DNA from: Alphaproteobacteria bacterium UBA3637
Lineage (GTDB): Bacteria; Pseudomonadota; Alphaproteobacteria; CAAHEQ01; UBA3637
Reading direction: 5' to 3'
DNA length: 46,944 nt
Assembly (NCBI GenBank): GCA_002373615.1
Contig: DFKU01000040.1
Location: 1 to 46,944, forward strand
A model generated the notes under the pieces. The model saw only the letters and a program-made list of their open reading frames with translations, was not told where the DNA came from and did no database searches. Position 1 is the stretch's first letter; the number at the start of each line of letters is the position of its first letter. This document shows positions 1-44,685 of the stretch, piece by piece. Made by a program: the position numbers and the translations under genes.

Positions 1-364
1 TCATGGCGGAATTATAGCCCGCTATCCCTGCGACACTCAAGACGCCCATCACCGCCAGGACACCCAGCATTTCCACCATACTGCGGCCACACTCACCCGT
101 CATTACGAGCCCACCTTTTTTATATCCCGTCATTGCGAGCCCGATAGGGCGTGGCAATCTGCCAGAGATTGCTTCGTTGGCAAGGCCGCCTCGCAATGAC
201 AATGAAGGGGTAGAACGCCCATACTTCTCTGTCATCCTTGGGGCAGCGTCAGCTGAACCCGAGGATCCAGCGGTATGTAGAACCTTATTTCCTACCAGAT
301 TCTCGCTTACGCAAGAATGACAAATCGAATTAAAGTTCTTTTCTTTTTTTAATAAAATATTCAT
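1..364 (-). CDS. type IV pilin-like (class III signal-peptide-like) protein, paralog 1; 3' end runs off the window
   Basis: My own translation of the minus strand from the ATG at 364-362 (GGGAG upstream) stays open for 121 codons to position 1. It gives a 93-aa leader ending ...LVMTGECG, followed by RSMVEMLGVLAVMGVLSVAGIAGYNSAM. The same block occurs in the ORFs at 24668, 37060 and 41616. It is absent from the ORF track because no stop codon lies within the window. Confidence 0.6.
   Translation of the reverse strand, partial: MNILLKKEKNFNSICHSCVSENLVGNKVLHTAGSSGSADAAPRMTEKYGRSTPSLSLRGGLANEAISGRLPRPIGLAMTGYKKGGLVMTGECGRSMVEMLGVLAVMGVLSVAGIAGYNSAM
99..112. repeat. solo terminal half of the GTCATTGCGAG-type palindromic element
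   Basis: GTCATTACGAGCCC matches the terminus of the elements at 129-200 and 24696-24759. It lies inside the leader-peptide coding region of paralog 1. Confidence 0.5.
129..200. repeat. palindromic MITE/RPE-like element, family 1 (termini GTCATTGCGAG / CTCGCAATGAC)
   Basis: The terminal inverted repeats are at 129-139 and 190-200. There is an inner stem GCAATCT...AGATTGC. It is GC-rich relative to its surroundings. A second copy lies at 24696-24759. This copy is translated in frame within the paralog 1 leader. Confidence 0.7.
230..322. repeat. palindromic MITE/RPE-like element, family 2 (termini TGTCATCCTTG / CAAGAATGACA)
   Basis: It has imperfect terminal inverted repeats. Related copies are at 24788-24842 (partial) and 46891-46944 (cut by the window end). 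It is in frame within the paralog 1 leader. Confidence 0.65.
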
Positions 365-805: not shown

Positions 806-847
806 ACAAAAAATCCCCCTATCAGGGAATTTAAATGGCGGGATTGA
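806..847. repeat. direct repeat copy overlapping the true 3' end of tRNA-Asp
   Basis: Partner of the repeat at 629-672. It includes the last 12 nt of the tRNA (TCAATCCCGCCA on the minus strand) and the CCCT-GAT-AGGG hairpin with T-run. Confidence 0.7.
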
Positions 848-913
848 AGGGGCTCGAACCCTCGACCTTCTGCGTGACAGGCAGACGCTCTAAACCAGCT
901 GAGCTACAACCCC
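836..913 (-). tRNA. tRNA-Asp (anticodon GTC)
   Basis: Hand-folded cloverleaf on the minus strand. Acceptor stem is GGGGTTG/CAATCCC, D arm GCTC-AGCTGGTTTA-GAGC, anticodon arm TCTGC-CTGTCAC-GCAGA (GTC), T arm GAGGG-TTCGAGC-CCCTT. Discriminator is G and CCA is encoded. Confidence 0.9.
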
Positions 914-15992: not shown

Positions 15993-18779
15993 TTACTTTG
16001 CCCCTTTCAATAATTCAACCAAACGCCATAGACCTGTTCCATGGGATGATTTCACCAAAACAACATCCCCCGTTTGCAGAATATTTGTTATGATTTCCAT
16101 CAATTCTTCCGGTGTCTTTGCCCACCCTTGTTGGATTTCTTTGGGAAGTGTTTCCAGCATTTTTTGCATGAAAATTCCTGTAGCAAAAACCCCTTGAATA
16201 TTATTGTGTGCTAAAACAGCGCTCAAGTCAAGATGATTTTTTAAAGATTCCTCCCCTAATTCCAACATATCTCCCAAAACAGCAATTTTTCGGCCTTGAT
16301 ACAGACCCAACATATTAATGGCGGCCGTCATTGAGCCCGGGTTCGCATTATAGGCGTCATCAATTAAAGTTATTTTTTTCCCATTGATAATGATTTCTTG
16401 CGCTTGACCACGTCCCGCCATAGGTGTCAAATTTTCCAACGTTTGAATGGCCAAAGGAACACTGGCACCAACCGAATCAATGACACCCAATACCCCCATG
16501 GCATCCAAAGCATAATGTTCGCCGATAAAGTGCATGGAAAAGTCACCCCTTTCCCCCATCATATCGGCTTTCACAAATTGCTTTTTATCATGGATAGAAA
16601 CATTTTTTAATTGGTAATCTGCTTTATCAGATTTACCAAATTTAATGATTTTATGAATGTTTTCTGAGACAGCAAAATCTGCCAAAATTTGTGCTCCCAA
16701 CGTATCTGCATTTAAAACAGCAACCCCGTTTTTATTTTGAAAATCAAAGATATGTGCTTTTTCGGCAGCAGTGACTTCAGGTGTTTTGAAAAATTCTTGG
16801 TGTGCCGGTTGAACATTCGTGATAATGCTGACATCAGGGCGCACCAAATCCGACAGCTCATGCATTTCACCCACGTGACTGATGCCCATTTCAATCACAG
16901 CATATTCGGAATTTGCCGGCATATTGGCCAAAGTATAAGGCACCCCCAAATTACTGTTTAAATTCGCCCGTGTAATATAGGTTTTGCCCTGGGCAGACAA
17001 ACAAGCCCCCAACATTTCTTTCACGGTGGTTTTTCCGGAACTGCCCGTTACCCCTATCACTTGAGCGGTCGTACGCATGCGGGCAAAACGGGCCAGTGCC
17101 AGCAAGGCTTCTTGAGTATCCAAGACAACAATTTGCTTTTCTATCGGGATATCCGCCAAGGGATGATTGACGACACAAGCCGCCGCCCCGGCTTCCACAG
17201 CCGCTTTCACAAATTCGTGACCATCCCGTGCGCCCCCCGTCAAAGCAATAAATAAATCCCCAATTTTGACTTCTTTGGAATTAAAGGTTACCCCATGGGC
17301 ATTGATAAATTCGGGCACTTCCACCCCCAGCGCCATTTGTAATTCTGATGCCTTCCATAAAGGCCTTTCGGTTAAATTTTTAAGCATAAGTTGTACCTCA
17401 ATTCTATCGTTAAACGGATATTCGGTGGGGCCGATTTTTTGTGTCGCTTCATGTCCTTTACCGGCCAACACCAAAACATCCCCTTTTTCGGCTGTGGCTA
17501 TCGCATGACGAATGGCCTCAAAACGCGTTTTTTCTTCTATCCCTTTGGGACAAGCTGCCAAAATTTCCGACCGAATTGTGGCAGGATTTTCTGACCTTGG
17601 GTTATCGTCCGTCACATAAACCACATCAGCCAACCGATTCGCAATTGCTCCCATCTGGGGACGTTTTCCTTTATCCCGATCCCCCCCACATCCAAACAGA
17701 CACATCAGGCGATTTTGGGTGTGTAAGCGCAGCGACTTTAAAACATGTTCCAGTCCATCCGGCGTATGGGCATAATCCACGAACACAAGCGCCCCTTTGG
17801 GCGTTTTCCCCATCAATTCCAATCGTCCTGCTGGGGCTTTTAATTGGGGTAAAAACCGAATAAGTTCTTCCCATTTTGCCCCCAGCGCATGACAAAGTCC
17901 CATCGCCGCCATTAAATTCATTCCTTGGAAATCCCCAAAGATGGGAACTTCAATTTCATATTCTTTTCCCAAAATTTCTAAGGTCAATTTTTGACCCTTT
18001 TCGGTGGGTTCTTGATTTTTTAATTTTAAAGTTTCCCCGTTTTTTCCATAGGAAACAATTTGTTCTCCACGGGATTCAGCCAATTTTTTCAGATCAAAAT
18101 ATTCGGGGATATCGGCATTTAAAACAGCTGTATCCCCCGCCCTTAAAATTTCAGAAAAGAGATTCTGTTTAGCCTGAAAATAATTTTCAAAAGTTTTATG
18201 ATAATCCATGTGATCGCGGGTTAAATTGGTAAAGGCCCCTGCTGCTAATTTTTGGCCCACCAAACGTCCTTGATCCAGCCCATGACTGGAAGCTTCCATC
18301 GCCACCACTTGAACGCCTTGCATCTCTAATTTTGCCAAAGTTTGGGCAAGTTCCTTGGGGGGTAAAGTTGTCATACCGCCATCAATATGTCCATCAGACC
18401 CGTCAATACCAATCGTACCCAAACTCACCGCTTTCACGCCCAATAAATTCATCAGTTGTTGCACAAAATATACAGTAGACGTTTTGCCATTGGTCCCCGT
18501 TACCGCCACTTTTTTTATGCTTTCAGAAGGCCATAAAAGGGCGCAAACACGTGCCAATTCGCGCCGCACATCCTTTACCACACGCACAGGAACATCACAC
18601 TTTATTTCGTGGTTGGCCACAATGGCTGAAGCCCCACGCTCAATCGCCTGTGGAATAAAATCAGCGCCATCCGCCTTGGTTCCTTTGATGGCAAAAAAGG
18701 CACAGGCTTTTGTCACCTTGTCAGCACATTCGGTGACATCCGTAATTTTATTTTCATCTAACCAATTTTTTAAGTCCAT
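15993..18779 (-). CDS. murEF: fused MurE-MurF (UDP-MurNAc-tripeptide synthetase and UDP-MurNAc-pentapeptide synthetase in one ORF)
   Basis: Single 928-aa ORF. The N-terminal half has VTGTNGKTST and DDNPRSENP (MurE). The C-terminal half has VTGSSGKTTVKE and NLNSNLGVPYTL (MurF). No stop codon or frameshift separates the halves. Confidence 0.88.
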   Translation of the reverse strand: MDLKNWLDENKITDVTECADKVTKACAFFAIKGTKADGADFIPQAIERGASAIVANHEIKCDVPVRVVKDVRRELARVCALLWPSESIKKVAVTGTNGKTSTVYFVQQLMNLLGVKAVSLGTIGIDGSDGHIDGGMTTLPPKELAQTLAKLEMQGVQVVAMEASSHGLDQGRLVGQKLAAGAFTNLTRDHMDYHKTFENYFQAKQNLFSEILRAGDTAVLNADIPEYFDLKKLAESRGEQIVSYGKNGETLKLKNQEPTEKGQKLTLEILGKEYEIEVPIFGDFQGMNLMAAMGLCHALGAKWEELIRFLPQLKAPAGRLELMGKTPKGALVFVDYAHTPDGLEHVLKSLRLHTQNRLMCLFGCGGDRDKGKRPQMGAIANRLADVVYVTDDNPRSENPATIRSEILAACPKGIEEKTRFEAIRHAIATAEKGDVLVLAGKGHEATQKIGPTEYPFNDRIEVQLMLKNLTERPLWKASELQMALGVEVPEFINAHGVTFNSKEVKIGDLFIALTGGARDGHEFVKAAVEAGAAACVVNHPLADIPIEKQIVVLDTQEALLALARFARMRTTAQVIGVTGSSGKTTVKEMLGACLSAQGKTYITRANLNSNLGVPYTLANMPANSEYAVIEMGISHVGEMHELSDLVRPDVSIITNVQPAHQEFFKTPEVTAAEKAHIFDFQNKNGVAVLNADTLGAQILADFAVSENIHKIIKFGKSDKADYQLKNVSIHDKKQFVKADMMGERGDFSMHFIGEHYALDAMGVLGVIDSVGASVPLAIQTLENLTPMAGRGQAQEIIINGKKITLIDDAYNANPGSMTAAINMLGLYQGRKIAVLGDMLELGEESLKNHLDLSAVLAHNNIQGVFATGIFMQKMLETLPKEIQQGWAKTPEELMEIITNILQTGDVVLVKSSHGTGLWRLVELLKGAK

Positions 18780-23198: not shown

Positions 23199-23545
23199 TT
23201 TATTTTCCTTTCTGTCAAAGTTGTTTTCATCATTCTTGTTCTTAAGTATTAAAATTCAAATTACTTAAATTTTAATTTCTTTTATTTTTACATTTTCAGC
23301 GTATTTATTTTTATAAAAAAAGTCAAGTTGATTTTTTTATTTTTACTTCTTTAAAATTGGGGTTAAAGTAAAAATAAAATACTGCATCCGTTTCCTCTTA
23401 AGCGCCCAAAAGGTGCTTTTATTTTATAATCTGAGTGTAAGATAAATTGATGTCGGAATTGGTACAAGTCAAAAGTCTAACTGATAAAAAAATTATCGTT
23501 CGTTTTAATATTGCTTTTTTTATTTTCTTTTGCTAAAATACTTCT

Positions 23546-23719
23546 GCCCGAGAGGGTGGGGTGTGATAGCCTCTCTCAATACGTCCAGCAGGACGAAGAT
23601 CTTCAATCGGTAAAGTCCGGTTGGATGGCCGCTAAATAAGGGACTTTGTCTTGAATAGGTGGCACTATTTATTGAGTAGTTATCACCTCCAACCACTTTT
23701 TGGGTGGTTTAATTTTTTT
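23546..23719 (+). promoter_or_regulatory. structured 5' leader RNA (type A1) with terminator/antiterminator, upstream of a small lipoprotein gene
   Basis: Promoter is TTGCTT at 23511-16, 17-nt spacer, TAAAAT at 23534-39. A helix pairs AAAGUCC (23612-18) with GGACUUU (23641-47). GGUUGGA(U)GG at 23619-28 is complementary to CCUCCAACC at 23686-94. That segment overlaps the terminator stem AACCAC/GUGGUU, which is followed by a U-run at 23710-19. A near-identical copy lies at 44200-44376 on the minus strand. Confidence 0.6.
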
Positions 23720-23730
23720 CAAGGAGTATA

Positions 23731-23916
23731 ATGATGAAAAAACTATTTTTAATTTTAATCGCGTTTGCTTTGACGGGGTGCACCTATGCGGGGCCCTTTG
23801 TGACACATATATCACAAAATAAAGATGGGAGCTTAACTGTGGAAAAATGTATGGTGGAACACAATGCTTTTTCTGGGGCCATCGCCACCACAAATTGCAC
23901 CCAATCTAAAGTATAA
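23731..23916 (+). CDS. small lipoprotein (61 aa), paralog of 44004-44189
   Basis: Lipobox LTGC. The mature part begins CTYAGPFVTHISQNKDGSLTVEKCMVEHN...TTNCT, with 3 conserved Cys. It has an AAGGAG RBS. Confidence 0.75.
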   Translation: MMKKLFLILIAFALTGCTYAGPFVTHISQNKDGSLTVEKCMVEHNAFSGAIATTNCTQSKV

Positions 23917-24667: not shown

Positions 24668-25036
24668 ATGGACATGAAAAATAGAAAAATAAATTGTCAT
24701 TGCGAGCCCATCAGGGTGTGGCAATCTCACGAGATTGCTTCACATACGTTCGCAATGACGGGTGAGTGTGGGCGTTCTAGCCCCACCTGTCATCCTTGGA
24801 CGAGCGTCAGCGAGATCCGAGGATCCACTGGACGTGGCCTTAACGTACCTCGTTGTGCACAATACGCACAATCCGGGCGCAGTATGGTGGAAATGCTGGG
24901 CGTCCTGGCGGTGATGGGCGTCCTCAGTGTTGCGGGCATCACGGGCTATAATTCCGCTATGAATAAGCATCGCGCCAACGAGCTCTTAAACGAGGCCTCC
25001 AAACGCGCCGCACCTGTCGCCATGCATTTGATGTAG
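24668..25036 (+). CDS. type IV pilin-like protein, paralog 2 (short; possibly truncated or pseudogenised)
   Basis: A 70-aa leader ends in SG, followed by RSMVEMLGVLAVMGVLSVAGITGYNSAMNKHRANE... The ORF stops only about 52 aa after the putative cleavage site. The leader contains two palindromic elements in frame. Confidence 0.5.
   Translation: MDMKNRKINCHCEPIRVWQSHEIASHTFAMTGECGRSSPTCHPWTSVSEIRGSTGRGLNVPRCAQYAQSGRSMVEMLGVLAVMGVLSVAGITGYNSAMNKHRANELLNEASKRAAPVAMHLM
24696..24759. repeat. palindromic element family 1, copy 2
   Basis: GTCATTGCGAGCCC...GGCAATCTC-AC-GAGATTGC...TTCGCAATGAC, translated as CHCEPIRVWQSHEIASHTFAMT. Confidence 0.7.
24788..24842. repeat. palindromic element family 2, partial copy
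   Basis: TGTCATCCTTGG...GCGTCAGC..GA.CCGAGGATCCA matches the left part of 230-322. Confidence 0.55.
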
Positions 25037-27762: not shown

Positions 27763-27913
27763 GCATTTTGATTTTGGTCAAAATGTCGGGTCTGAAAAAT
27801 CCGTACAATCTATCCGTCCAGAATCGGGCGGATGACCGCCCAATAAATTGAATAAGTGGTACTATGATTGTATAGTTTTTCAGCATCCGTCCACTAAAGC
27901 AGTGGATTTTTTT
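27763..27913 (+). ncRNA. orphan copy (type B1) of the structured leader RNA family; no downstream plus-strand gene
   Basis: Promoter is TTGACA at 27728-33, 17-nt spacer, TACCAT at 27751-56. Helices are GAAAAA/UUUUUC (27794-99 with 27876-81), UACAAUC/GAUUGUA (27804-10 with 27866-72), and the hairpin GGGCGG-AUGA-CCGCCC (27826-41). GGCGGAUG (27827-34) is complementary to CAUCCGUC (27884-91), which overlaps the terminator UCCAC-uaaagca-GUGGA plus U7 (27890-913). Confidence 0.6.
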
Positions 27914-27997
27914 AATGGCACATATGGGCGGTGCTGGCTGAATAAATTGAATAGGTCAGAGGTTTTTAATAGGACTAATACATTGAACGCCGCCCGC

Positions 27998-28222
27998 CTA
28001 ATTCACTTCTTTAAAATCCACATCAATCACATCATGGGCGTGAATCGGGTGATGACGCGTACGGTGTTTGCGAACGCGCGTTCTTATGTGGCCTTTCAGG
28101 CGTCTTAGTGCCCCCAATAAAACAGCGATAATTAAAATTGGAATGGCCACATACCATAGCGTCAAAAACATGAACATCAAAAATAAAGCCGATAAAATGA
28201 TGGAAAAAAGCTGGTAAATCAT
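27998..28222 (-). CDS. small membrane protein (hypothetical)
   Basis: 74 aa with two hydrophobic helices and a basic/His-rich tail. Its start overlaps the mutS stop by 4 nt, which suggests translational coupling. Confidence 0.55.
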
Positions 28223-36779: not shown

Positions 36780-37045
36780 AATTTGGGGAAACCTGAATTC
36801 TGAGTGCCTGAAAAGGTGCAAGAGAGTTGTCGCAGACTCAATGTCACGGGTGAGTGACACCTGCCCCAAAAGGTGCGTGTGTTTTAAATAATCCTTTGGA
36901 TTTGCTCACCTATTTTTTCCCGACATGGTCGGGGGCCTTTGGTGCATGTTCAGGGGGAAACCCTAAAGACCATTGGAATCATTGTGACATTTGATTGCGA
37001 ACTCTCCGGCCACCTGAAATTCAGGTGGTGTTTAAACAATAAAAA
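36780..37045 (+). promoter_or_regulatory. long 5' leader of pilin-like paralog 3 (composite; contains repeat remnants and a terminal hairpin)
   Basis: Promoter is TTGTTT at 36744-49, 17-nt spacer, TACAAT at 36767-72. ACCUGAAUU (36791-99) is perfectly complementary to AAUUCAGGU (37018-26), which is the 3' half of the hairpin CCACCUGA-aau-UCAGGUGG (37010-28). There is an internal hairpin CCCGAC-aug-GUCGGG (36919-33). The motif CAAAAGGUGC occurs twice. Confidence 0.4.
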
Positions 37046-42271: not shown

Positions 42272-44014
42272 ATGCCTATCCGATTACTCCCCCAAAATCT
42301 TGTCAATCAAATTGCTGCCGGTGAGGTGGTGGAACGCCCCGCCAGTGCCATTAAAGAATTGATTGAAAATGCGATTGATGCGTGTGCCACCCAGATTGAT
42401 GTGCGCTTGGAAAACGGGGGAAAGACCTTTTTTTCGGTGGCGGATAACGGAAAAGGCATGAGTCAAGAGGAACTGCCTGTTGCCATTCAAAGACATGCGA
42501 CCAGTAAATTGCCCAAAGATGACCTGTTAGACATCAATTTTTTGGGCTTTCGGGGGGAAGCGCTCCCCTCCATCGCTTCTGTTGCCAAAATGACAATAAC
42601 CTCACGCACAGCGGATTCGGACACAGGTTGGCGGTTAGAGGTAACGGGCGGCATTACCGAAAAGCCCTGCCCTGCCCCACGCGCCCTTGGGACAACGATA
42701 GAGGTCCATAACCTCTTTTACAATGTCCCTGCCCGCCTTAAATTTTTAAAATCCGATCAAAGTGAGCAAGGGGCCATCAGGGAAGTCTTTGATCGCTTGG
42801 CGATGGGGAACCCAGAAATTACTTTTTCTTTGGCCACAGAAAATAGGAAACTCGCCCATTATCCCGCAACAGAAAGCCTGTTTGACCGTGTCGCTATGGT
42901 AATTGGGCATCAATTTAAAGAAAACGCCCTGCCCGTTCAGGCAGAATATGAAGGGATAAAATTGGCGGGCTTTGTGGGCCTGCCCACCTATACGCGCGCC
43001 ACCAGTACAGAACAATACTTATTTGTCAATGGGCGCTCGGTCAAAGATAAAGTGTTGTTGGGTGCGATTCGGGGCGCTTATCAAGGTTTAATGGGGCATG
43101 GCAGTGAGGGGCACCCTGTCCTTGCCCTATTCCTGTCTGTTCCAAAAGATAAAATTGATGTCAATGTGTCGCCCGCCAAAACAGAAGTGAGATTTGCCGA
43201 GGCCGGACGAATTCGGGGATTATTGGTCGCCAGTATCCGAAATGCTTTGGCGGAACACGGGCAAAAGACCGCAAGTACCATTTCTATCGGGGCTTTGGAT
43301 ACCTTTATTCCCCGTGAAACACCTATGGCCTATTCGGCACCGGTGCGTCATACGCCTGTCCAACATACTTTCAATTTACAGGACTCTTATCAGGTTAAAA
43401 AGGAAGTATCCGCCCCTACCCCCGTGGTTGAGGATGACTTTCCGCCGTTGGGCCTGGCCAAAGCGCAAGTCCATAAAACATATATTATTGCCCAAACAAA
43501 AGAGGGCTTTGTGGTGGTGGATCAACACGCGGCGCATGAACGGCTGACCTATGAAAAAATGATGGCCAATTTTGGCGAACACCCGCAAACACAACTGTTG
43601 TTGGTGCCTGAAATTATCGATTTAAAGCCGGAAGAAGTGGCCCTATTAAATGCGCGTGCGCCCGAATTAAAAGAAATGGGCTGGGTGATTGATCCCTTTG
43701 GGGCGGATTCTGTGGCGGTCAGGGAACTCCCTGCATTACTTGATAAAACAGATATTCAAAAGACCATTCAAGATTTGGTGGATACCCTGCGCGCCTTTGA
43801 TGATACCGTTTTATTAAAGGATAAAATGAAAGATATTTGCGCGCGCATGGCGTGCCATGGATCGGTCAGGGCCGGGCGTGTTTTAAATCTTGATGAAATG
43901 AATGCCCTTTTGCGTCAAATGGAGGCCTGTGGCACCTCAGGTCAATGTATCCACGGGCGCCCCACCTATATTGAACTCAAATTAAAAGATATTGAAAAAT
44001 TGTTTAACCGATAA
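42272..44014 (+). CDS. mutL: DNA mismatch repair protein MutL
   Basis: GHKL N terminus NQIAAGEVVERPASAIKELIENAIDA and a C-terminal dimerisation region; 580 aa. Confidence 0.95.
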   Translation: MPIRLLPQNLVNQIAAGEVVERPASAIKELIENAIDACATQIDVRLENGGKTFFSVADNGKGMSQEELPVAIQRHATSKLPKDDLLDINFLGFRGEALPSIASVAKMTITSRTADSDTGWRLEVTGGITEKPCPAPRALGTTIEVHNLFYNVPARLKFLKSDQSEQGAIREVFDRLAMGNPEITFSLATENRKLAHYPATESLFDRVAMVIGHQFKENALPVQAEYEGIKLAGFVGLPTYTRATSTEQYLFVNGRSVKDKVLLGAIRGAYQGLMGHGSEGHPVLALFLSVPKDKIDVNVSPAKTEVRFAEAGRIRGLLVASIRNALAEHGQKTASTISIGALDTFIPRETPMAYSAPVRHTPVQHTFNLQDSYQVKKEVSAPTPVVEDDFPPLGLAKAQVHKTYIIAQTKEGFVVVDQHAAHERLTYEKMMANFGEHPQTQLLLVPEIIDLKPEEVALLNARAPELKEMGWVIDPFGADSVAVRELPALLDKTDIQKTIQDLVDTLRAFDDTVLLKDKMKDICARMACHGSVRAGRVLNLDEMNALLRQMEACGTSGQCIHGRPTYIELKLKDIEKLFNR

Positions 44015-44189
44015 TATCGGTTGTGCAATTTTTGGTAGAAACTGTACCCAAAATATTATGCTCCATCATACACTTTTCAACCTTTAAGTCCCCTGATTTT
44101 GTACGCGAAATATTGGTGACATAAGGCCCGGCATAGGTGCACCCTGTCAAAACAAACACGATAAAAATTAAAAATAGTTTTTTCATCAT
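44004..44189 (-). CDS. small lipoprotein (61 aa), paralog of 23731-23916
   Basis: I moved the start to the ATG at 44189 (MMKKLFLIFIVFVLTGC, AAGGAG RBS). The mature part is CTYAGPYVTNISRTKSGDLKVEKCMMEHN...TKNCT. Its 3' end overlaps the mutL stop region by 11 nt in a convergent arrangement. Confidence 0.75.
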   Translation of the reverse strand: MMKKLFLIFIVFVLTGCTYAGPYVTNISRTKSGDLKVEKCMMEHNILGTVSTKNCTTDIIG

Positions 44190-44199
44190 TATACTCCTT

Positions 44200-44376
44200 A
44201 AATAAAATTTAAACCACCCCAAAAGTGGTTGGAGATAGGAAACTACTCAATAAATAGTGCCACCTATTCAAGACAAAGCCCCTTATTTAGCGGCCATCCA
44301 ACCGGACTTTACCGATTGAAGATCTTCGTCCTGCTGGACGTATTGAGAGAGGCTATGATACCCCACCCTTCCGGGC
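44200..44376 (-). promoter_or_regulatory. structured 5' leader RNA (type A2), near-identical copy of 23546-23719
   Basis: Minus-strand promoter is TTGCAA (44406-11), 17-nt spacer, TAGAAT (44383-88). The reverse complement aligns almost base for base with A1. The GGGACUUU to GGGGCUUU change keeps pairing as a G-U wobble. The terminator is CCAACCAC-uuuu-GGGGUGGUU. Confidence 0.6.
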
Positions 44377-44419
44377 AAGGCTATTCTAACACAAACAAAT
44401 ATAATTTGCAAGACAATAA

Positions 44420-44685
44420 TGAGAGTGGATAACTTTGGGATAACTGGGGATAACTTGGGATAAAAAAATTTCATCAAAATATTTTTCAGAATTTATTCTT
44501 TTTTATACACAGATAAAAAGAAGAATTTTTCAGCCTTATACGATTCGCCCATCAGACCTTTTATTGCCCTAAAAAAAACGATTCGTTTTAAACTTAAAAT
44601 TCCTGTCAACAAAAATAAGAAAAAGTTTTCCACATTATCCACAGGGCTACTAAAACAACTATATTTATTATATAAAAAAGGAAAA
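44420..44685. other. oriC: candidate chromosomal replication origin (oriC): DnaA-box cluster plus AT-rich tract
   Basis: Four GGATAA-core boxes begin at 44427, 44438, 44448 and 44458, spaced 11, 10 and 10 bp apart; the first reads AGTGGATAA. A very AT-rich stretch spans 44461-44620. Tandem boxes TTTTCCACA (44626-34) and a perfect TTATCCACA (44635-43) follow. Four parS sites lie 4-5 kb away. Confidence 0.45.
44626..44643 (+). promoter_or_regulatory. tandem DnaA boxes (TTTTCCACA TTATCCACA)
   Basis: The second 9-mer equals the consensus TTATCCACA. The first matches 8 of 9 positions. Confidence 0.6.

Follow-up and report, generated by a model that had tools for sequence, protein, structure and literature searches.

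The 46.9-kb contig DFKU01000040.1 of Alphaproteobacteria bacterium UBA3637 (46,944 nt, about 41% GC, hereafter the window, i.e. the whole stretch analyzed) carries five genes for pilin-like proteins, P1–P5, dispersed singly among housekeeping genes and sharing the junction G↓RSMVEMLGVLAV(M/I)GVLSVAGI, where the arrow marks the predicted cleavage site between the leader and the mature protein. We consider it probable that palindromic repeats have been inserted repeatedly and in frame into the leaders of such genes, that they are translated from the original start codon and that an insertion bias contributes to their accumulation there. In the scenario that we favor, the genes would form a divergent type IV pilin-like family whose signal is of class III type, with a short basic leader that has Gly at −1, then Glu at +5 and a hydrophobic helix of about 50 residues. 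Repeats of either orientation would have entered several times independently, at points between the original start codon and the codons of the cleavage site, and the survivors would be the insertions that keep the frame open, i.e. those whose total length is a multiple of 3 and whose right end reads ..A ATG AC. or ..GAT GAC. Translation would proceed from the original ATG and its Shine–Dalgarno (SD) sequence through the repeat; the enlarged leader would stay in the cytoplasm and presumably be cleaved at G↓R by a prepilin peptidase, with an unchanged mature pilin and a nearly neutral insert. The concentration of repeats in the leaders and, to a lesser extent, in the pilin-gene flanks would probably require an insertion bias besides tolerance, for which the candidates would be (i) a Y1 (HUH-type) transposase targeting hairpins in single-stranded DNA; (ii) attraction to resident elements; (iii) recombination of near-identical paralog 5′ ends.

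Palindromic elements in the pilin leaders

An initial annotation of the window had reported leaders of 11, 32, 70 and 93 aa in four paralogs. These lengths were reproduced, all the features described lie within 1–2 nt of the positions found here (Table 1), and all four paralogs are present, but a fifth, P5 (from 46849), had been overlooked; over its 5′-most 97 nt, P5 matches the beginning of the P1 leader at 91% identity. All complete elements are genuinely palindromic and form stable predicted hairpins (ΔG of −24 to −34 kcal/mol, z-scores of −3 to −5). P1 holds the repeats ascribed to it (B′, A and half an A, the last placed at 99–112 in the initial annotation); of the two ascribed to P2, A is present (24696–24759) and B is only a partial left-arm hairpin, 83% identical to part of 231–269 in P1. 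Relative to its gene, the A copy of P1 is inverted compared with that of P2, and likewise B′ of P1 compared with B of P2. Element B′ also opens P5 (from 46892) and the leader in L085 and, more distantly, that in L009 (L numbers designate fetched loci), and elements of type C recur in the leaders of P0008, P0024, P0063, P0068 and P0078. The segment GGGCGTTCTA(C/G)CCC, which encodes G-R-S and had been described at insertion borders, was found at both borders named (24770–24783 and, as its reverse complement, 207–220). The frame is open through the repeats, as had been claimed: the P1 leader contains no in-frame stop, versus 8 and 5 in the two remaining frames. The proposed concentration in leaders also stands, since a blastn search with all elements, including those from related genomes, detected no copy outside the pilin leaders in the window; in L084, a further 15.7 kb from the same organism, the elements are likewise confined to the pilin leader. 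No Rfam family matched the elements in a gathering-threshold scan of the whole window or in E-value scans of leaders and element-rich loci. A hammerhead ribozyme, prompted by CTGATGAG in element C, was rejected: the core GAAA is out of place and there is no Rfam match.

Concerning the genes themselves, P4 occurs as exact copies in four metagenome assemblies. The window's organism is present in ERZ12302819, ERZ28612943 (SHIW14) and SRR5322900. A protein search with the 93-aa leader of P1 returned two relatives only, and complete P1 or P5 genes were found nowhere. P2, with its short mature part and the loss of the 5′ half of its upstream RNA leader, is probably a degenerating gene. Orthology between P3 and its closest homolog in UBA3650 (L005) could not be established; the L005 contig begins at the gene. 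Both ends of the window (1 and 46944) fall within inverted copies of one pilin 5′ region, and independent assemblies break within leader repeats (both window ends, the end of L001 and the start of L211).

Table 1. Pilin-like genes, leader elements and candidate RNA leaders in the window (ΔG in kcal/mol; ↓, junction; SD, Shine–Dalgarno sequence)
Feature	Position	Strand	Description
P1	1–364	minus	cut at window start; 93-aa leader (including G−1), then G↓RSMVEMLGVLAVMG, no stop
P1 leader	86–364	minus	93 aa
P1 mature N-terminus	1–85	minus	RSMVEMLGVLAVMGVLSVAGIAGYNSAM
P1 start ATG	362–364	minus	SD GGGAG at 371–375
Element B′ in P1	231–321		91-nt GTCAT…ATGAC palindrome with central spacer; translated CHSCVSENLVGNKVLHTAGSSGSADAAPRMT; ΔG −34.3, z −3.0
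Relic cleavage-site codons in P1	207–220	minus	GGGCGTTCTACCCC (G-R-S-T-P); left border of P1 element A
Element A in P1	129–200		72 nt, GTCATTGCGAG…CTCGCAATGAC; ΔG −33.3
Half element A in P1	99–125	minus	GGGCTCGTAATGAC on gene strand
P2	24668–25036	plus	122 aa; leader 24668–24877 (70 aa); mature part 53 aa
Element A in P2	24696–24759		64 nt; translated CHCEPIRVWQSHEIASHTFAMT; ΔG −31.0, z −5.3
Relic G-R-S codons in P2	24770–24778	plus	GGGCGTTCT
Partial element B in P2	24789–24842		single left-arm hairpin, then unrelated sequence through 24874
P3	37060–37836	plus	258 aa, intact; leader 32 aa
Element C in P3	37087–37143		57 nt; translated VILSETKNLMRSFTFVQDD; ΔG −23.6, z −5.2
P4	41616–42212	plus	198 aa; 11-aa native leader MSKSQKKNEQG; element-free
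P5	46849–46944	plus	MDKLLKKEKNLNSICHSCVSENPAGNKVLHTA…; cut at window end
RNA leader and terminator of P1	375–489	minus	74.7 bits; directly upstream of P1 SD/ATG
RNA leader of P2	24543–24647	plus	weak, 20.7 bits; 5′ half missing
RNA leader of P4	41489–41594	plus	
RNA leader of P5	46728–46824	plus	
RNA leader copy	23615–23722	plus	
RNA leader copy	44199–44307	minus	
RNA leader, tandem pair, first	27822–27917	plus	
RNA leader, tandem pair, second	27922–28017	plus	weak, 26 bits

A genome scan with the pilin N-terminus yielded 527 relatives, nearly all in uncultured alphaproteobacterial metagenome-assembled genomes (MAGs), whose sources are the guts of humans, ruminants and rabbits, with UBA3650 in addition. 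The pilin-like family counts 3776 members in the protein database. Leaders were analyzed in 96 distinct pilin genes from related genomes. Most are 7–20 aa long, and about 23 of the 96 hold GTCAT…ATGAC elements, among them L009, L010, L012, L013, L015, L016, L020, L022, L031, L034 (nested), L041 (130 aa on a 497-aa protein), L067, L071 and L075. Element-bearing leaders of 27–130 aa occur in at least nine other MAGs, and by a hand count element-derived leaders of 20–68 aa are present in about 43 of the 116 closest P4 homologs that show the junction (~37%). Leaders also grow by another route, namely in-frame 30-nt tandem duplications of the left arm (VI(F/S)GGHTSPS, one or two copies), seen in L013 (2276–2305) and L015 (28–87).

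The open frames are maintained in these relatives. In 19 long leaders (3042 nt), the pilin frame contains no stop, versus 71 and 80 in the other two frames, a count that is partly circular in that the leaders were picked for an open far ATG, i.e. the start codon upstream of the elements; in a less circular test, about 88 of the 96 genes proved to have their nearest upstream SD-ATG in frame, with no stop up to the junction. A neutral 40-codon insert would be expected to pass in less than 2% of cases, given about 0.07 stops per codon off-frame and a 1-in-3 frame match. The right ends of the elements read ..A ATG AC. (..MT) or ..GAT GAC (..DD), and the frame giving TGA was never seen. Three proteins starting at MVEML (P0010, P0011 and P0020) were considered as broken frames and proved to be contig-edge artefacts.

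Complete palindromes number 17 per 5.8 kb in leaders, 15 per 94 kb in the 600-nt flanks of pilin genes, 0 per 80 kb in mature pilin coding sequence and at most 3 (at least one of them false) per 320 kb in everything else, a roughly 20- to 300-fold enrichment in leaders, as counted in loci fetched for holding pilins and not in complete genomes. The leader had initially been viewed as a tolerant landing pad. Tolerance alone leaves the enrichment over intergenic DNA unexplained, since ordinary intergenic DNA should tolerate inserts at least as well as a leader; an insertion bias is likely.

Insertions were evidently independent, as indicated by the opposite orientations of A and B in P1 and P2 and by an empty site: a P2-like gene in L206 lacks the 105-nt segment that runs from 24770 to the functional GGGCGCAGT at 24875 and reads GGTCGGTCT-ATGG. 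Three insertions (the L013 type, P2-B, and A in P1, L084 and L085) lie at one identical nucleotide, after GGN-CGN-TCN-A, each with a second G-R-S on its right; the two G-R-S copies differ (TCN on the left versus AGT on the right), and the repeated stretch measures about 16 nt in one case. Elements are stacked or nested in P1, L034, L041 and L085, reaching 4–5 per leader, and form tandem arrays downstream of L010 and L015, which suggests that elements attract further elements. Finally, some leaders are mosaics: a given element may stand behind different N-termini, and a given right flank (TTEGG, GECG) behind different elements. This suggests that the elements are also spread by recombination of the near-identical paralog 5′ ends.

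Translation start, predicted leader cleavage and alternative readings

The initial annotation treated the repeats as coding rather than as part of the 5′ untranslated region (UTR), and three lines of evidence agree with this: (i) the mean SD pairing energy at the far ATG is −7.5 kcal/mol, equal to that of element-free paralogs, versus −2.35 kcal/mol at internal in-frame starts; (ii) a conserved RNA leader with its terminator ends 13–28 nt before the far ATG, with or without elements after it, a spacing that holds in the element-free P4, L038, L008, L023 and L061 and in the element-bearing P1, P5, L084, L009, L010, L012, L013, L022, L067, L075, L085, L206 and L208, so that the elements entered downstream of the original start codon; (iii) the G-R-S residues are invariant, while their codons vary synonymously (GGN, CGN, TCN/AGY), so that translation must begin upstream of G-R-S. 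The latter pattern rules out a start at the Met of S-M-VEML. Moreover, L020, L067 and L075 contain no ATG, GTG or TTG between the element and G−1. The identification of the far ATG as the native start codon, with the repeats lying in frame between it and the G↓RS junction, is therefore supported.

The pilin nature of the products is suggested by what they have in common with type IV pilins and pseudopilins, namely a basic leader whose last residue is Gly, a Glu at +5, an N-terminal helix of hydrophobic character and numerous paralogs. About 75 of the 96 genes have native leaders that are short and basic with Gly at −1 (e.g. MKKLESG, MKRTNESG and MSKSQKKNEQG), and the sequence G↓RSMVEMLGVLA(I/V)(I/M)GVLS, with Glu +5 followed by a hydrophobic stretch, is invariant. 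In a profile match, G−1, E+5 and the hydrophobic segment line up with G↓FTLIELLIVVAIIGILA from PilA-N of Geobacter (7tgg), and an AlphaFold2 model comprises an N-terminal helix of 52 residues (13–64, predicted local distance difference test score 83) followed by a beta domain. Sub-threshold matches to prepilin-peptidase-dependent protein families were obtained for 44 of 72 members, and two relatives are annotated as 'pseudopilin PulG' by JGI. The similarity to known families is limited to the pilin N-terminus, and a Foldseek search of the PDB with the model, head domain included, gave no significant match. In prepilins, the basic leader stays in the cytoplasm and is removed at the cytoplasmic face. 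The extended leaders have a net positive charge of +2 to +6, and extra leader peptide of this kind should thus be harmless; the leader is predicted to be cut at G↓R by a prepilin peptidase. Type IVa leaders measure about 6–7 aa and type IVb leaders about 15–30 aa, and to our knowledge leaders of 32–130 aa would be far beyond any class III leader. No earlier description of palindromic elements concentrated in a signal or leader peptide, pilin leaders included, or of class III leaders this long, was found in the literature.

Several observations weigh against this interpretation. With respect to the pilin assignment, residue +1 is an invariant Arg, and not Phe, Met or Leu as in type IV pilins, within the motif G↓RSMVEML; the best scores against N_methyl (PF07963) and TIGR02532 are 13.5–14.8 bits, below the cut-offs of 21.2 and 16.3, and TIGR02532 was matched in 21 of 72 members, always under the cut-off; and the 46.9-kb window contains no prepilin peptidase gene and no gene for pilus or type II secretion system assembly. 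With respect to translation, P1 displays an SD-like AAAAAAGGTGG (AAGGTGG, ΔG −7.7) located 7 nt before an internal in-frame ATG (101–103), which lies within the half element A and would give a 6-aa leader, MTGECG, and L071 has an internal in-frame ATG with a good SD (−8.7). With respect to gene integrity, that of multi-element genes is undemonstrable in the window's organism, P1 and P5 being cut and P2 truncated; the copy in L084, from the same organism, has a 1-nt frameshift in its mature part; and L085 has a frameshift in a 565-nt leader with at least five elements, where two frames overlap by about 190 nt, the break being equivalent to a single frameshift. Finally, the relic G-R-S at the left border fits neither a clean target-site duplication nor simple recombination, and the reliance of the enrichment on pilin-containing loci, mentioned above, tells in the same direction.

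Some of these observations would suit a reading, unlikely in our view, in which the repeats are 5′-UTR insertions, translation starts at the ATG of the element's right end (MT-x-E-x-G↓RS, with a leader of 6–8 aa) or at another internal ATG, and the upstream frame is incidental or decaying. Most right ends read ..MT.., placing an in-frame ATG 6–9 codons before G−1, two internal ATGs have the strong SDs just cited, and in L085 and L209 the far frame is broken, yet MTVGYETG↓RS and MTVESG↓RS, respectively, are in frame. However, internal starts have a weak SD on average, in about one quarter of the leaders the element's right end is read as ..(Q/N)DD and supplies no ATG, and the three loci devoid of any internal start codon could not be translated in this way; besides, the distribution of stops among frames indicates that the upstream frame is maintained, and the far ATG retains an SD plus a basic, K/N-rich N-terminus. 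P1 may be translated from both starts. We give slightly less credit to the idea that heavily loaded leaders mark dying pilin paralogs, in which repeats accumulate as in pseudogenes once selection is gone. P2, with its 53-aa mature part and damaged RNA leader, the frameshifts in the L084 paralog (mature region) and L085 (leader), and L209, whose leader element is split by an IS200-family insertion sequence (IS), are what this idea predicts. On the other hand, most element-bearing genes are full length (220–500 aa, with an intact N-terminal helix and a Cys-rich C-terminus), as in L010, L012, L013, L016, L031, L034, L041, L067 and about 40 database proteins; decay would hit the mature part too, where the 80 kb surveyed contain no element; and the frame is open across the inserts.

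The least probable of the alternatives, in our judgment, is that the elements have been co-opted, either as mRNA hairpins tuning translation or stability, or as portable homology for pilin switching or phase variation through the exchange of promoters, RNA leaders and N-termini between paralogs. Strong hairpins do start about 25 nt past the ATG, mosaic leaders combine a shared element with different N-termini or a shared right flank with different elements, the elements also cluster just up- and downstream of pilin genes, and several pilin genes are preceded by simple-sequence repeats, a hint of phase variation. Yet neither the type of element, nor its position, nor the encoded peptide is conserved between orthologous groups, many paralogs, P4 included, work element-free, and no direct evidence of switching was found.

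Nature and possible mobility of the elements

An alignment of the A family reveals two inverted modules, GTCATTGCGAGG…GCAATC and GATTGCCACGCCC…GGGCTCGCAATGAC, in each of which GTCAT stands ahead of an imperfect palindrome some 25 nt in length, with a spacer of variable sequence between the modules; overall, the elements are 55–130 nt long and run from GTCAT to ATGAC, with arms of at least 11 nt. The 31-mer GATTGCCAC.CCC....GGGCTCGCAATGAC, which forms the right half of A, was found in at least 120 metagenome contigs (L086–L205) with GC contents of 27–69%, an unusually wide cross-phylum conservation for a small repeat; no pilin motif lies beside the 31-mer in these contigs. Among 58 full copies of the A family, no target-site duplication was detected (mean longest flank match of 2.4 nt versus 1.8 nt in controls), the palindrome often continues into the flanks, a sign of nested insertions, and lengths are uniform modulo 3 (21:19:18), although this measure, taken from GTCAT to ATGAC, is uninformative as the true ends of the elements vary. 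The label of miniature inverted-repeat transposable element (MITE), under which the repeats were first described, thus fails for the A family, and on sequence grounds that of a doublet of repetitive extragenic palindromic (REP) sequences, or REPIN-like element, would fit better, though the copies are intragenic.

An indication as to mobility comes from L209, where an IS200/IS605-family IS (190–733) is inserted exactly in the middle of the palindrome, between …AAATACTGCT and GGATGCCCG…. Its TnpA (142 aa) scores 119 bits against NF033573; the native SD-ATG precedes the IS, as does the element's left half, while the right half and MTVESG↓RS lie downstream. Hence, Y1-type, single-strand-specific transposition hits the leader site, and we infer that the small elements move by Y1-type transposition too. 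No parent IS sharing the ends of the elements was identified; the hairpin ends of the L209 IS carry an ATTGCG…CGCAAT theme, and a tblastn search with a Y1 transposase query found no copy beyond L209 in the 1.1 Mb of fetched loci. In the literature, the string 'gtcattgcgag' matched primers only.

Comparison with known repeats is instructive. In-frame palindromic repeats within genes are already known from the Rickettsia palindromic elements (RPEs), which were described in Rickettsia genes that encode proteins (Ogata et al. 2000, via PMC10969869), from some ERIC/BOX elements and from QMITE copies (PMC10969869, PMC5896051), whereas prokaryotic MITEs are normally intergenic (PMC10969869). The parallel with RPEs drawn by the initial annotation is apt insofar as the insertions seen here are also in frame and translated within open reading frames (ORFs): in both cases, small palindromic repeats in Alphaproteobacteria keep the frame and encode a peptide without evident function, tolerated in places where the fold is left undisturbed. 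RPEs differ in being about 100–150 bp long, Rickettsia-specific and spread across many unrelated genes, in the mature protein; the leader elements are 55–110 bp long in this comparison, belong to a cross-phylum repeat type (the range of GC contents of the A-containing contigs argues against Rickettsia specificity), occupy one segment of one gene family, which the product probably loses, and are stacked. With REPs and REPINs they share a head that is conserved (GTCAT), the imperfect palindrome of some 25 nt behind it, the hairpin formed by an inverted doublet, the absence of target-site duplication and tandem or nested clusters. However, REPs and REPINs are extragenic by definition and the leader elements are intragenic and translated, the head is GTCAT and not GTAG, and no REP-associated tyrosine transposase (RAYT) gene adjoins them in the 1.1 Mb of fetched DNA, which does not cover whole genomes. 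The resemblance to the IS200/IS605 family lies in the palindromic ends and in the transposase gene of that family within the L209 element. MITEs, including the QMITEs of Coxiella (PMC5896051), are likewise small and numerous, end in inverted repeats, form stable RNA hairpins and are now and then fused in frame with genes, but they are normally intergenic and have the target-site duplications that could not be detected for the 58 A-family copies. What appears to be new is the concentration of palindromic elements in a leader peptide across an uncultured clade, in-frame insertion itself being known, mainly from RPEs.

A bolder version of the scenario, which we advance tentatively and regard as less likely to hold than not, is that the leader and the cleavage-site codons are a preferred 'safe harbour' target for REPIN-like elements mobilized by a Y1 (HUH) transposase on single-stranded DNA, that the three insertions at one identical nucleotide are independent and each regenerated a G-R-S on its right, that elements draw in more elements and even an IS200-family IS, and that signal peptides of 70–130 aa are still processed. 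If so, these would be by far the longest class III signal peptides known, and prepilin peptidases would ignore leader length.

Upstream RNA leaders, genomic surroundings and implications

The conserved RNA leader found upstream of the pilin genes is about 100 nt long, with an intrinsic terminator that overlaps the 3′ strand of its first helix. It comprises helix P1 (9 bp; helix names are independent of the gene names), helix P2 (6 bp), which encloses the conserved strands AAUAAG and rAAUAkG, two hairpins, the small P2a and P3, and a UUUCUAAC joiner. Covariation among 29 sequences is strong: 96.8% of cells are paired versus 30–49% when partners are slid, double-sided changes affect 146 cells versus 6–17, and 15 of 21 pairs display compensatory changes. 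No Rfam 15 family matched in the gathering-threshold scan of the window or in an E-value scan of the upstream RNA. This RNA looks like a riboswitch or an antitermination leader. Apart from the copies in Table 1, 23 further copies occur in the fetched loci (e.g. L012 2752–2856 and L067 2773–2881). Besides pilin genes, the RNA stands before both copies of a gene for a 61-aa lipoprotein, and it also occurs at one orphan site; it is therefore not restricted to pilin genes. The lipoprotein gene (MMKKLFLILIAFALTGC…) and its RNA leader form an inverted duplication of about 400 nt (23500–23916, plus strand, and 44005–44422, minus strand; 78–87% identical). The orphan tandem pair at 27822–28017 has no same-strand gene downstream and runs into a convergent small membrane-protein ORF and MutS; it is either what remains of a pilin gene now lost or a small RNA in its own right. 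P3 is preceded by another conserved leader (~36930–37040, plus strand; CCCGAC..GTCGGGGG..GGGGAAACCC..CTCTCCGRCCACC…GGTGG), shared with a pilin gene of another MAG (L025, ~2790–2950), which is a candidate for a second cis-regulatory RNA.

Also upstream of pilin genes, simple-sequence repeats, (CA)7–25, (TA)5 or (TCTA)n, are found 100–170 nt before the ATG in L014, L019, L029, L041 and L027, and L050 has a C9 run (~2850) between the SD-ATG and the pilin frame. These repeats suggest slipped-strand phase variation in the pilin family.

The housekeeping genes of the window encode FabD, an outer-membrane beta-barrel protein, MipZ, phosphoglucomutase, the dcw cluster (MraW, FtsI and a fused MurE–MurF), Ndk, Cu/Zn superoxide dismutase, FadL, MutS, MiaA, HolA, ParB–ParA–GidB, RNase T, MutL, a cation diffusion facilitator (CDF) transporter and DnaJ, plus one tRNA-Asp. 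MipZ and the relatives of the pilin genes both point to an alphaproteobacterial host. The apparent MurE–MurF fusion is a single 928-aa ORF (15993–18779, minus strand) with two complete sets of Mur ligase domains. Between 39690 and 40746, a 16-nt palindrome, TGTTTCACGTGAAACA, occurs four times in and beside gidB, parA and the RNase T gene and agrees with the parS consensus. Given these parS-like palindromes, the parAB–gidB genes and a cumulative GC-skew minimum near 40–42 kb, this region is probably near the replication origin. In addition, a 46-nt direct repeat (85% identical; 627–672 and 802–847) includes the 3′ end of the tRNA-Asp gene (836–913, minus strand) and may have been left behind by an integration event at that gene.

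Taken as a whole, selfish DNA has an unusual intragenic hot spot in the leader of these pilin-like proteins, which the finished product probably lacks. Should the long precursors be synthesized and processed, class III signal peptides would tolerate a tenfold extension, which would be useful for the annotation and engineering of pilins; gene callers would mis-start or split such genes, assemblers would break contigs there, and selfish DNA would persist in coding sequence at almost no cost. If, in addition, the insertions are targeted, these leaders would offer a tractable natural case of REP-like site preference, for elements whose mobility is poorly understood.

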